From Selenomonadaceae bacterium (lineage in GTDB: Bacteria > Bacillota > Negativicutes > Selenomonadales > Selenomonadaceae), in the NCBI GenBank assembly GCA_017470715.1, contig JAFUYE010000119.1:7024-71023 (forward strand): DNA of 64,000 nt. The letters are read 5' to 3'. Of this stretch, positions 48,601-51,877 are shown piece by piece; position 1 is the first letter of the stretch; each line of letters starts with the position of its first letter. The notes under the pieces are model-generated. The model worked only from the letters and a program-made list of their open reading frames with translations, was not told the origin of the DNA and made no database searches. The translations under genes were made by a program, and so were the position numbers.

Positions 48601-48632
48601 AGCCCCGACGTTTTGTCGAGGCGATTTTTTTT
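48601..48632. terminator. bidirectional terminator
   Basis: GCCCCGACGttttGTCGAGGC hairpin flanked by an A-run and a T-run. Confidence 0.6.
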
Positions 48633-49539
48633 ATTTGATGACTGCGCGGGCAAAAGCTTTCATGTGTTGAATCGTGTTGTATTCGCCCGTGAAATTTTCC
48701 GTCATTATGACGAGCACGGCATCTCCGGCGTTGCTGTAAATAATTCCGCCGTCGTCGTAAAGTCCGTCAAGCGCGCCCGTTTTGTGAGCAATTTGCTTGT
48801 CGGGCAGTGCGGCGGGGAAACAATCCGTGTCGGTTTGTTTGACGAGAAAATCAAGCATGATTTTATCAAACTTTTCGTTGACGCATTCATAATTGTACAG
48901 TTTCAAAAAAATAGTTCCCAAGTCGCGCACGGAAGAAAAATTTTCGCGTCCTGCGGCAATGGCGTCGTAGTCCATCATTTTGCGTCGCAAAACCGTATCG
49001 CCGTAGCCTTGACTTTTAATGTAGGCGTTAATCGCGTCCATGCCTACGCGGTCGATAACGATATTCGTCGCTGTATTGTCACTGTGCGTTATCATCAACT
49101 CCAGAACTTCGCGCAGGGAAAGTTGCGTGCCTGAAGCATAACCCGCCAAAATTCCCGCGCCGCCGACTTTGTCACTGCCGTTGAGTGTCAACGTTTCGTC
49201 AATGTCCAATTCGCCGCGATTTGCTTTGTCCATGACCGCCGCCAAAATAAAAACTTTGATCATGCTTGCCGAGCGCATCGGCTTTGAATTGTAAATGAAC
49301 GGCTCGGCAGATTTTGTCGGGAAAGCGAGATAAACCGCGTATTCGGTGCCGTCGTTGAGCGTTTCGGCAATGATTCCGTCAATCCCGTCAAACGGTGATT
49401 CGGCTTTGACCGTCGGGAAATTTTTTTGTTCAGTCGGGACATCTTTTTGTTCGTTCGGCGGAAGTTTTTCGTCAGCGACGCAAGCCGAAGTAAAAATCAC
49501 GGCGATTGTTATCAGTGAGATAAAAAATTTGCGGAACAT
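48631..49539 (-). CDS. class-A beta-lactamase-like serine hydrolase, paralogue 1
   Basis: SxxK (SMIK), SDN and KTG (HKTG) motifs. N-terminal signal/anchor. Confidence 0.8.
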   Translation of the reverse strand: MFRKFFISLITIAVIFTSACVADEKLPPNEQKDVPTEQKNFPTVKAESPFDGIDGIIAETLNDGTEYAVYLAFPTKSAEPFIYNSKPMRSASMIKVFILAAVMDKANRGELDIDETLTLNGSDKVGGAGILAGYASGTQLSLREVLELMITHSDNTATNIVIDRVGMDAINAYIKSQGYGDTVLRRKMMDYDAIAAGRENFSSVRDLGTIFLKLYNYECVNEKFDKIMLDFLVKQTDTDCFPAALPDKQIAHKTGALDGLYDDGGIIYSNAGDAVLVIMTENFTGEYNTIQHMKAFARAVIK

Positions 49540-49551
49540 GTTTGCTCACCC

Positions 49552-49881
49552 TTAGAAATTGTTGACGACGTAGCGATAGATGCTCGACGCGACAGGAGAG
49601 GCACCGCCGTTGACGTAACCCGAATAACCTTCGGAATTGCGGTAGTACGGGCTGCCGTTGTACGGATAAAAGCTGTAGTTGAGATAATCATATCCCGCAC
49701 GAACCCTGCAAGTGAAACGGTAAGGGCTGTAGCTCTGAATGCTGACGGTGTGCGTCAACAGGTAAACCGCCGAACCGTCGCTGTAGTTGCCGACGTAGAC
49801 TTCGCCCGCTTCGACGTTAGTTTGTCCCGCAACAACGAGCGCGAACGCCAAAATCATCGCCGCAAAAAATTTTTTCATCAT
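49552..49881 (-). CDS. small secreted protein, paralogue A
   Basis: Signal peptide plus a conserved core: EVYVGNYSDG.AVYLLT...C.VRAG.DYL.Y...YRNSEGY.G....G.SPVA. Confidence 0.7.
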   Translation of the reverse strand: MMKKFFAAMILAFALVVAGQTNVEAGEVYVGNYSDGSAVYLLTHTVSIQSYSPYRFTCRVRAGYDYLNYSFYPYNGSPYYRNSEGYSGYVNGGASPVASSIYRYVVNNF

Positions 49882-49902
49882 GATAAATGCCTCCTTAAAT
49901 TT

Positions 49903-50244
49903 TTATCGTCCAATGTAATTGCAAATGTTTGCGGCAACGGGCGAGCTTCCGTCGTGAACACGCCCGCTATAGCCTTCGGAATTTTTGTAGTACCAAGTCC
50001 ATGAGTTGCTTGCTTCCGACCAAAATTCATAGTCAAGATAATCTCTGCCGGCGCGAACAGTACACCAATAGCGCACGGCATTCGAATAATTTCGCTCTTT
50101 GATGGTTTGAGTGAGCAGATAAACCGCTGTGCCGTCGCTGTAGTTTCCAACGTAGACTTCCGCTGCTTCGGCTTTGGACATTTGCCCACCTGCAATTACA
50201 AGTGCAAACGCCAGAATCATCGTTGCAAAAAGTTTTTTAACCAT
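49903..50244 (-). CDS. small secreted protein, paralogue B
   Basis: ATG 50244 after an AAGGAG SD. Same family as 49552..49881. Confidence 0.7.
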   Translation of the reverse strand: MVKKLFATMILAFALVIAGGQMSKAEAAEVYVGNYSDGTAVYLLTQTIKERNYSNAVRYWCTVRAGRDYLDYEFWSEASNSWTWYYKNSEGYSGRVHDGSSPVAANICNYIGR

Positions 50245-50257
50245 GATGGTTGACTCC

Positions 50258-50587
50258 TTAACGATTTCTGAGGTAGCGATAAATGGCAGCTGCAACGGGC
50301 GACGAACCGTCGTCAATGTAACCGTGATAGCCTTCCGAATTTCTGTAGGCCACGCGTCCATTGATTCGCTCGAAACCGTATTGCAGATAGTCGTTGCCGG
50401 CTCTGACTGCACAAGTAACCTCATAGCTTGTGTTGCGCGTGTAGCGATCAATGGTTTCCGTGAGCAAATAAACTGCCGTGCCGTCGCTGTAGCTACCCAC
50501 GTAGACTTCCGCTGCTTCGACGTTGGTTTGTCCTGTGACGACAAGCGCGAACGCAAAAATCATCGCCGCAAAAAGTTTTTTGATCAT
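50258..50587 (-). CDS. small secreted protein, paralogue C
   Basis: ATG 50587 after an AAGGAAG SD. Same family. Confidence 0.7.
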   Translation of the reverse strand: MIKKLFAAMIFAFALVVTGQTNVEAAEVYVGSYSDGTAVYLLTETIDRYTRNTSYEVTCAVRAGNDYLQYGFERINGRVAYRNSEGYHGYIDDGSSPVAAAIYRYLRNR

Positions 50588-50618
50588 GAAGACCACTTCC
50601 TTAAAAAATTTTTCAGTC

Positions 50619-50647
50619 ATTATAGGAAAATTCTTTATAAATGTCAT
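50619..50647 (-). promoter_or_regulatory. promoter of the small-protein/bla-like operon
   Basis: Minus strand ATGACA, 17-nt spacer, TATAAT. The surrounding ~110 bp is duplicated at 51700-51790. Confidence 0.5.
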
Positions 50648-50771
50648 GAATCAAGCATGAAAGTTGTTTCAAATGTTTAGAAATATTTTCGCGCTGTCAG
50701 TAATAATTTTGGTTCATTTTCTGTGCGACTTGCAGTACGCATTACCGATAAAAAAATCCGTCGTTAAATTT

Positions 50772-51674
50772 TTACTTGATGACTGCGCGGGCAAAATTTT
50801 TCATGTGTTGAATCGTTTCATATTCACTCGCAGAATTTTCCGTCATGATGACAAGTATGGCGTCGCCCGCGTTGCTGTAAATAATTCCGCCGTCGTCATA
50901 AACGTCGTCGAGCGCGCCGGTCTTGTGAGCAATTTTTTTGTCGGGAAGTGCGGCGGGAAAACAATCCGTGTCGGTCTGCTTAAGAAGAATGTCAATCATC
51001 ATTTTATCAAACTTTTCGTTGACGCATTGATAATTGTACAGTCGCTTGAAAAAAAGTCCCAAGTCTCGTGCCGACGAATAATTTTCACCGTTGCCGGCAA
51101 TCGCTTCGTGAAACATCATCTTGCGACCCAAAAACGTGTCGTTGTAACCGTGCCTTTCGGCGTAAGCGTTAATTTCGTCTCCGCCGATTCGATCAATAAT
51201 CATGTTGGTTGCGGTATTGTCGCTGTAAGTTATCATCAGCTCCAAAACGTCGCGCAATTTAAATGAAGTGCCGGGGGCTTCGCCGACCAAAATTCCTGCT
51301 CCGTCGACCATGTTGTATTCTTCAAGAATCAAAGGCTCGTCGAGGCTGATTTCACCGCTTTTGACTTTTTCCATGACCGCCGCCATGATAAAAACTTTAA
51401 TCATGCTTGCCGAACGTATTTTGTGAGAGTTGTGAATAAAACTGTCGGAAGATTTTTTCGGGTACTCAAGATAAACCGAATAATCGGTTTCGTCGTTGAG
51501 ATATTGGGCAATTTTGGCGGGCGTGTCGTGGAATGGCGATATTTCTTCGACCTTTGGAGTTTCGGGAAGTTTTTTGGCTTTGGACAAAAATTTTTTTTCG
51601 TTGCCGCACTCCGAAGTTAAAACGAATACTGTTACGAACACCAAGATTGTTGCTACAAAAAGTTTTTTGATCAT
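50772..51674 (-). CDS. class-A beta-lactamase-like serine hydrolase, paralogue 2
   Basis: SMIK, SDN and HKTG motifs. Collinear with paralogue 1 over its full length. Confidence 0.8.
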   Translation of the reverse strand: MIKKLFVATILVFVTVFVLTSECGNEKKFLSKAKKLPETPKVEEISPFHDTPAKIAQYLNDETDYSVYLEYPKKSSDSFIHNSHKIRSASMIKVFIMAAVMEKVKSGEISLDEPLILEEYNMVDGAGILVGEAPGTSFKLRDVLELMITYSDNTATNMIIDRIGGDEINAYAERHGYNDTFLGRKMMFHEAIAGNGENYSSARDLGLFFKRLYNYQCVNEKFDKMMIDILLKQTDTDCFPAALPDKKIAHKTGALDDVYDDGGIIYSNAGDAILVIMTENSASEYETIQHMKNFARAVIK

Positions 51675-51707
51675 GAAAACCCCGTCCTAGAAAATTTTTT
51701 CAATTTA

Positions 51708-51736
51708 ATTATAGGAATATCTGTTATACGCGTCAT
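51708..51736 (-). promoter_or_regulatory. promoter of bla-like paralogue 2
   Basis: Minus strand ATGACG, 17-nt spacer, TATAAT. Paralogous to the 50619-50647 promoter. Confidence 0.5.
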
Positions 51737-51877
51737 GAATCAAGCGTGAAAATTATTTCAAACACTTAAAAATATTTTCGTGCTGTCAGGGATAATTTTT
51801 TGCCGAGCTTGCTTTAAAAGTTACGGAAATATTTGCTTGGCATTTTGTTGCGATGAAATTTTTTGCACGAAAAAAGC

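Follow-up and report, generated by a model that had tools for sequence, protein, structure and literature searches.

Organization of the locus

The window, a stretch of 64,000 nucleotides on contig JAFUYE010000119.1 of a Selenomonadaceae bacterium, contains on its minus strand a cluster of two genes for predicted serine enzymes of the class A beta-lactamase fold, bla1 and bla2, and three genes for small secreted proteins, small A, small B and small C. The elements follow each other in the order P2, bla2, P1, small C, small B, small A, bla1 and terminator, where P1 and P2 are the two copies of a duplicated promoter block. The bla2 gene (positions 50772 to 51674, 300 amino acids) is preceded by P2 (51656 to 51799). 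P1 (50569 to 50710) precedes small C (50258 to 50587, 109 amino acids), the first gene of the P1 operon, which continues with small B (49903 to 50244, 113 amino acids), small A (49552 to 49881, 109 amino acids) and bla1 (48631 to 49539, 302 amino acids). The order and the positions had been proposed in an earlier note on this DNA and were borne out, all five reading frames being open. The gaps between the four genes of the P1 operon are 13 to 21 nucleotides, with Shine-Dalgarno sequences, and bla1 is followed by an intrinsic terminator (48602 to 48622) with an 8-bp stem containing 6 GC pairs and then a T run, which was rated strong. No terminator was predicted between bla2 and P1 in the terminator scan.

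Two long open reading frames lie on the plus strand antisense to bla1 and bla2 (48553 to 49134, 193 amino acids, and 50664 to 51266, 200 amino acids). When their translations were compared by eye, the pair looked like paralogous shadows of the duplicated genes, and these frames are most likely not genes.

The large proteins and their amidase partner

The bla1 and bla2 proteins are 61% identical (E = 1e-132), and both match PF13354 (E = 1e-61 and 1e-57, respectively). The SxxK, SDN and KTG motifs, which the earlier note had reported in both, were found at S92MIK95, 153-155 and 253-255 in bla1 and at S90MIK93, 151-153 and 251-253 in bla2. The same note had called the two proteins class A beta-lactamase-like, a label that did not survive closer comparison. 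In class A beta-lactamases, Glu166 is the omega-loop base for deacylation, together with Asn170. When bla1 and bla2 were aligned to PBP-A, via its Leu158, and to TEM-1, the Glu166 column was occupied by Met188 in bla1 and Met186 in bla2, and in the TEM-1 comparison Asn170 fell into an alignment gap. The residues R-K-M-M at this site were invariant in 38 of 38 Selenomonadaceae homologues. The scores against the NCBIfam class A profile (bla_class_A, NF033103) were 83.6 and 91.9 bits, less than half of the 200-bit cut-off, and neither protein matched any of the named bla families in NCBIfam.

The nearest relatives with solved structures were 4EWF (E = 3e-27), 4HES (E = 2e-25) and PBP-A Tll2115 (2J7V, E = 2.7e-19; bla1 residues 86 to 276). 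PBP-A is a DD-carboxypeptidase/DD-endopeptidase without the omega-loop Glu of beta-lactamases, prefers stem peptides that are amidated on D-iso-Glu, and damages the envelope of Escherichia coli when expressed in the periplasm (PMC11189452). A lipobox was read by eye in bla1 (FTSAC) and in most orthologues (...FSGC, ...GTAC), and bla2 has no canonical lipobox (LTSEC); bla1 is thus a predicted lipoprotein. On sequence grounds it is concluded that bla1 and bla2 are probably periplasmic DD-peptidases of the low-molecular-weight penicillin-binding protein (PBP) type, similar to PBP-A, and not class A beta-lactamases.

The occurrence of these enzymes was followed in 151 evenly sampled Selenomonadaceae genomes, in which a gene was assigned to the bla1 clade at E <= 1e-86 and a small-family match was counted as strong at E <= 1e-30. 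A bla1-clade gene was present in 23 of the genomes. Besides the small gene, the bla1-clade enzyme has a second partner, a secreted N-acetylmuramoyl-L-alanine amidase (Amidase_2, PF01510), which adjoined the bla1-clade gene in 11 of the 23 genomes and was fused to it in 3. One of the fusion proteins, with 499 amino acids, was confirmed to contain both PF13354 and PF01510. A further Negativicutes family has the peptidase-amidase pair as well but no small gene, which gives the small protein the appearance of a lineage-specific supplement to a more ancient pair of cell-wall hydrolases. In the genome studied here, the only close Amidase_2 homologue is located on contig C14 (4812 to 5384), unlinked to the peptidase genes.

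Fusions of the PBP-A-like and Amidase_2 domains, about 500 amino acids long, were seen in two genera (L055 in G122, L065 in G094 and L067 in G098). In close relatives of the fusion genomes (G031 and G130), the peptidase and the amidase are encoded by separate adjacent genes with one stop codon between them. The amidase gene on C14 follows directly after flagellar-looking genes (fliI/fliJ-like, as judged from the translations alone).

Both proteins have the class A fold and three of its four motifs, and tandem amplification is typical of resistance genes. A reading of the two genes as class A beta-lactamase genes that were amplified by drug selection, with the small genes as bystanders, is nevertheless very improbable. 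Glu166 and Asn170 are absent throughout the clade, the NCBIfam scores are far below the class A cut-off, and the genomic partners are cell-wall hydrolases. The identity of only 61% between the two copies indicates an old duplication, not a recent amplification. Furthermore, no mobile-element genes were seen among the neighboring genes examined in the window.

The small protein family

The small A, small B and small C proteins are 60 to 65% identical and share a signal peptide and core motifs, in agreement with the earlier description of three paralogues of about 110 amino acids. Each is composed of a cleavable signal peptide (cleavage between ...VEA and AE) and a mature domain of 84 to 86 residues (84 in small A), 11 to 16 of which are Tyr; the family median is 14% Tyr. 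About 23 positions are invariant in the family, including those of YSDG, NSEGY and SPVA, and these three motifs are common to the subfamilies that are linked to bla genes and to those that are not. The AlphaFold2 model of small C, built from an alignment of 40 sequences, had a mean predicted local distance difference test score (pLDDT) of 85.5, with values above 90 over the mature part, and predicts six beta-strands followed by a C-terminal helix.

The family had been described as unassignable from the sequence, and profile and structure searches did not change this. No match for the small proteins was found among Pfam, NCBIfam and PDB sequence profiles, and distant paralogues in this genome had no Pfam match either. 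The Foldseek search with the small-protein model gave no significant match: the best E value was 0.83 in the PDB, with template modeling (TM) scores of at most 0.35, and 0.055 in BFVD. A search of 5.8 billion proteins returned 147 relatives, all of about 110 amino acids, and the few that were named are "hypothetical protein" entries from Selenomonadaceae metagenome-assembled genomes (MAGs). The profile search of 1.84 billion representatives returned 198 clusters. Of 301 Negativicutes genomes, 65 were Selenomonadaceae, 14 of which had the family; the remaining 236, which represent 34 further families, had no member of it. Among the genomes searched, the small family was thus found in Selenomonadaceae only, and as far as we find it has not been described.

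Some relatives carry the small domain at the C terminus, behind a zinc ribbon or a transmembrane anchor and a low-complexity linker, and in one case the domain occurs in tandem. This tandem and membrane-anchored occurrence fits an extracytoplasmic binding module. No fusion between a small domain and a bla domain was found; the multidomain relatives have zinc-ribbon or transmembrane N termini and no bla domain. Taken from their sequences, the small proteins are probably soluble, periplasmic, noncatalytic proteins with a Tyr-rich beta domain.

The genome studied here contains 11 small-family matches, including a tandem pair on contig C124 and weaker paralogues, and none of those outside the window lies near a PF13354 gene. 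On C124 (9939 to 13250; L014, 5939 to 9250), the tandem small genes (119 to 120 amino acids) are followed by genes for a homologue of protein tyrosine phosphatase (PTP)-like phytase and for two proteins with a transglutaminase core. The phytase homologue is secreted and has PF14566 and the HCxxGxxR motif, and PF01841 was checked on the 238-residue transglutaminase-core protein. With C124, the small family has a second setting beside secreted enzymes. On contig C24 (L018, 5577 to 5942, minus strand), a signal-peptide protein of 121 amino acids is encoded within the ATP synthase operon, between atpH (OSCP, PF00213) and atpA, and matches the small profile weakly (E = 1.6e-5).

Pairing of small and enzyme genes across genomes

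A pattern scan of species representatives found 20 loci, all of them in rumen Selenomonadaceae or Quinella MAGs. At 6 of the 20 loci, a gene of the small A type (65 to 79% identical) was located directly upstream of a bla1 orthologue (57 to 78% identical). Small A is the subtype that lies directly upstream of bla1 orthologues elsewhere, with up to 79 to 81% identity. In the sample of 151 genomes, a small gene adjoined the bla1-clade gene in 14 of 23 genomes, belonging to at least nine genera. In most cases the small gene preceded the enzyme gene on one strand; in one case (G064) the two were convergent. Across genera the small gene comes first, with a gap of 13 to 90 nucleotides to the enzyme gene. 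A strong small-family match occurred in 13 genomes outside the window's genus, and in each of them it was beside the enzyme gene. The second, more distant bla-like clade had an adjoining small gene at none of its 9 loci.

Synteny was considered as the cause of the pairing and rejected, since the genes flanking the cluster in the window do not recur at other linked loci. None of them (glmS, the SDF symporter, rpsT, the membrane open reading frame and the SSF symporter) was present at the six linked loci of the scan, and the neighbors of the linked loci differ among themselves. The pairing of the small and enzyme genes is real. The earlier note had proposed a functional pairing of the two families, to be checked by their co-occurrence across genomes. 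The association stood, as the families are paired beyond chance and synteny. One of the proposed frames, an enzyme with a beta-lactamase inhibitory protein (BLIP)-like partner, did not stand, because the large proteins are PBP-A-like and have no Glu166.

One unlinked locus (L030) is syntenic with a linked one (L025), with the same upstream genes and the same ldh-like gene downstream, but has neither the peptidase gene nor the amidase gene. The difference between the two is a natural deletion or insertion of the peptidase-amidase pair.

The duplicated promoter block and the history of the locus

The upstream regions of small C and bla2 are paralogous (50569 to 50710 and 51656 to 51799), with 81% identity over 144 nucleotides (E = 5e-33), as had been claimed for about 110 bp upstream of each gene, and no third copy of the block was found in the 2.9-Mb genome. 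The similarity reaches about 20 nucleotides into the coding sequence and covers the first six codons (MIKKLF), so small C and bla2 have their first codons in common. The promoter scan identified a -35 box, a 17-nucleotide spacer and the -10 box TATAAT in both copies, with 11/12 and 10/12 matches. In P1, the -35 box is ATGACA (50647 to 50642) and the -10 box is at 50624 to 50619; in P2, they are ATGACG (51736 to 51731) and 51713 to 51708. The spacing of 17 nucleotides in both copies agrees with the earlier prediction, but the -35 box is ATGACR and not TTGATT. The latter hexamer, within the block TTGATTCATGAC pointed out in the earlier note, is 24 nucleotides away from the -10 box.

An inverted repeat, TGAAA-N4-TTTCA, is located at 50658 to 50671 in P1, and the upstream block CTGACAGCGCGAAAATATTT is at 50681 to 50700. 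P2 has the same inverted-repeat arms with a different spacer. It had been suggested that the conserved upstream block is the site of a regulator, and this candidate was rejected. The exact 20-nucleotide block occurs in the genome only at P1 and P2, near matches being inside coding sequence or chance-like, and it is not conserved upstream of the orthologous operons. The inverted repeat was not enriched in the genome (31 occurrences compared with 17 to 28 in Markov simulations). The Rfam search of the leaders for an RNA element returned only one sub-threshold chance match. The promoter blocks are 81% identical compared with 69% at the synonymous third positions of bla1 and bla2, and this better conservation suggests that the promoter is under constraint.

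In the tree of the small proteins, all 11 rows of one clade (support 100/99) are bla-linked, and its sister is a clade in which copies of the small A type are basal. Small B, small C and the C124 pair belong to a derived, wholly unlinked subclade. Since unlinked copies from other genomes cluster with small B and small C, the three copies in the window are old paralogues, and a recent local triplication of the small gene was ruled out. The enzyme tree groups bla1 and bla2 with the orthologue of Quinella sp. 2Q5 at 100/100 support, and the bla2 branch is five-fold longer than that of bla1 (0.78 versus 0.14). Gene conversion as the source of the promoter similarity was also rejected: where bla1 and bla2 have the same residue, identity at the third codon position is even along the two genes (mean 0.69), and no conversion tract is seen in them. 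The simplest history would be a tandem duplication of the whole unit of promoter, small gene and peptidase gene, in which the upstream copy came to be without a small gene and its enzyme diverged.

Neighboring features

On the minus strand downstream of rpsT (PF01649), the region from 51876 to 52120 contains three terminator-like hairpins in series. Two 26-nucleotide units in this region (52013 to 52038 and 52093 to 52118) are 96% identical, and the sequence AAATTTTTTGCACGAAAAAAGCC occurs twice identically, at 51856 to 51878 and 52002 to 52024. Between rpsT and the gene for the SSF sodium:solute symporter, a predicted membrane or secreted protein of 270 to 307 amino acids is encoded on the minus strand (52467 to 53390); it has no Pfam or NCBIfam match.

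Proposed function and alternatives

The locus is interpreted, with moderate confidence, as a tandemly duplicated, lineage-specific operon for periplasmic peptidoglycan remodeling in a rumen Selenomonadaceae bacterium near the Quinella MAGs, in which the small protein would be a noncatalytic accessory. The bla1 and bla2 proteins would be low-molecular-weight enzymes of the PBP-A type, with the class A fold but without the deacylating Glu166. Their expected activity is that of a DD-carboxypeptidase or DD-endopeptidase on stem peptides that bear polyamines, and hydrolysis of antibiotics would not be expected. The ancestral unit may have consisted of a promoter, a small gene and a DD-peptidase gene, often followed by or fused to a gene for a secreted Amidase_2 enzyme. 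After its duplication, the upstream copy would have retained the promoter and the first codons, with no small gene and a fast-evolving bla2, and the downstream copy would carry three old small paralogues ahead of bla1. The small protein most likely binds a common periplasmic target, either the modified wall or the hydrolases, and may direct or restrain hydrolysis.

In the peptidoglycan of Negativicutes, the alpha-carboxylate of D-Glu in the stem peptide is modified with cadaverine or putrescine, polyamines of a kind that is often bound by aromatic residues (PMC10628300). Because the polyamines sit on the D-Glu carboxylate that PBP-A prefers to be blocked, the operon may represent a peptidoglycan-trimming module adapted to polyaminated peptidoglycan.

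Several points weigh against this interpretation. Another general base, such as the conserved Glu of the downstream REN motif, may serve in bla1 and bla2. Nine of the 23 bla1-clade genes had no adjoining small gene, one of them being on a contig of 1.8 kb, and the related genomes in the pairing counts are not independent samples. In the window's genus, seven strong small-family loci, the two copies on C124 of this genome included, were unlinked and had varied housekeeping contexts; the C124 pair adjoins the phytase homologue and the two transglutaminase-like secreted proteins. A 99%-complete genome (G014) has a gene of the small A type (69% identical), and a bla-like match was absent at E <= 1e-20. 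Linkage of the small family to the enzyme is not obligatory, and the family is expanded in the window's genus. Wide occurrence of the small family without bla-like neighbors, which according to the earlier note would speak against the pairing, was found in part, at these seven loci and in G014, and mainly in one genus.

With such copies in housekeeping contexts, with distant paralogues scattered over the genome (one of them between atpH and atpA), and with more than a third of the enzyme genes lacking a small neighbor, the small proteins might be an unrelated lineage-specific periplasmic family, structural or nutrient related, that shares the operon by chance in part of its members. However, the adjacency was kept across at least nine genera despite changing flanks and one change of orientation, the pairing was complete in the strong-match genomes outside the window's genus, and the bla-linked small copies form a well-supported clade, so that the absence of any functional link is considered unlikely. 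If the small protein were unlinked to the enzyme, the locus would be an ordinary duplicated operon.

Within the interpretation as a remodeling operon, two modes of action of the small protein can be distinguished. Control of the enzyme is favored by the compact operon, which begins with the small gene, and by the toxicity of PBP-A-type activity. A common target such as the wall is favored by the motifs common to linked and unlinked copies, by the tandem and anchored domains, and by the copy of the small A type in a genome without the enzyme.

The strictest form of enzyme control would be that the small protein is a dedicated periplasmic inhibitor, functionally similar to BLIP or to an immunity protein, which binds the active site of the DD-peptidase and restrains a potentially self-damaging hydrolase until it is required. 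The close coupling of the two genes across genera would be expected of such a pair, uncontrolled activity of the PBP-A type harms the envelope (PMC11189452), and the family comprises many diversified paralogues, some of which adjoin genes for other secreted enzymes. The invariant YSDG, NSEGY and SPVA motifs of linked and unlinked subfamilies nevertheless suggest a common target over one enzyme, and a copy of the small A type persists in G014 without such an enzyme. In addition, no separate small gene precedes bla2, the tandem and membrane-anchored small domains resemble binding modules, and the small proteins have no likeness to the folds of BLIP, BLIP-II or lysozyme inhibitors. A role as dedicated inhibitor is therefore regarded as doubtful.

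A broader proposal, which is put forward tentatively, is that the small Tyr-rich domain represents a new fold that arose in Selenomonadaceae for the recognition of their polyaminated peptidoglycan, or a clamp on the PBP-A-type peptidase, and with it a new class of noncatalytic hydrolase controllers in diderm Firmicutes. If the domain reads the modified wall or clamps the peptidase, the paralogues and the membrane-anchored fusions would form a lineage-specific toolkit for reading the cell wall. The family is abundant, confidently foldable, restricted to one lineage and without detectable relatives, and a true binder or inhibitor among its members would have a new binding or inhibitor fold.

If the interpretation as a peptidoglycan-remodeling operon holds, a likely misannotation would be corrected: the rumen genes labeled "class A beta-lactamase-like" would encode DD-peptidases, which would affect resistome surveys of rumen metagenomes. 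The small protein, the PBP-A-type peptidase and Amidase_2 would then form a conserved module in diderm Firmicutes and offer a tractable handle on the control of hydrolases. The envelope biology of these bacteria, including polyaminated peptidoglycan and OmpM tethering, is only recently being elucidated.

Comparison with known systems

The kind of enzyme is already known (PBP-A type). For the small family, and for the way in which it is coupled to peptidase and amidase, we found no earlier description. Among small periplasmic inhibitors, Ivy and MliC/PliC were not represented in the Pfam matches of the small proteins, of which there were none, or among the Foldseek matches in the PDB. EnvC/NlpD, LpoA/B and the LysM, SPOR and SLH domains are comparable by analogy, in that a periplasmic nonenzymatic protein is encoded with, or acts on, cell-wall enzymes. 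They have no homology to the small proteins, which would act in a comparable way.

BLIP and BLIP-II of Streptomyces are alike in concept, as small secreted proteins, and the small proteins could likewise bind a serine enzyme of the class A fold. There is no similarity to them in sequence or fold (tandem alpha/beta in BLIP, beta-propeller in BLIP-II), and the candidate target belongs to the PBP type and is made by the same cell. BLIP genes are not known to share an operon with the genes of their targets. The class A beta-lactamases, such as TEM, SHV and CTX-M, have the fold, Ser70, Lys73, Ser130-Asp-Asn and Lys234-Thr-Gly in common with bla1 and bla2; they differ in Glu166 and Asn170, which are missing from bla1 and bla2, and the hidden Markov model scores of the latter are far under the curated cut-offs.

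The closest solved sequences are two structural-genomics entries, 4HES ("beta-lactamase class A-like protein" of Veillonella parvula, also a Negativicute) and 4EWF ("beta-lactamase" of Sphaerobacter thermophilus). Both have the omega-loop type of bla1, with no equivalent of Glu166 in the alignment, and, judged by their PDB names, they have no assigned function. Neither is known to have a small partner, and no member of the small family was found outside Selenomonadaceae. The best-characterized counterpart is PBP-A (Tll2115) of Thermosynechococcus elongatus (2J7V, 2J8Y, 2J9O and 2JBF), which resembles bla1 in its fold and in the SxxK, SxN and KTG motifs. PBP-A has a hydrophobic residue in place of Glu166 (Leu158), as does bla1 (Met188), and both are exported to the periplasm, as predicted in the case of bla1. 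The sequence relation is distant (E = 3e-19), and bla1 is a predicted lipoprotein of a diderm Firmicute. What distinguishes bla1, and to our knowledge has not been reported for PBP-A, is its genomic coupling to a small partner and to Amidase_2.

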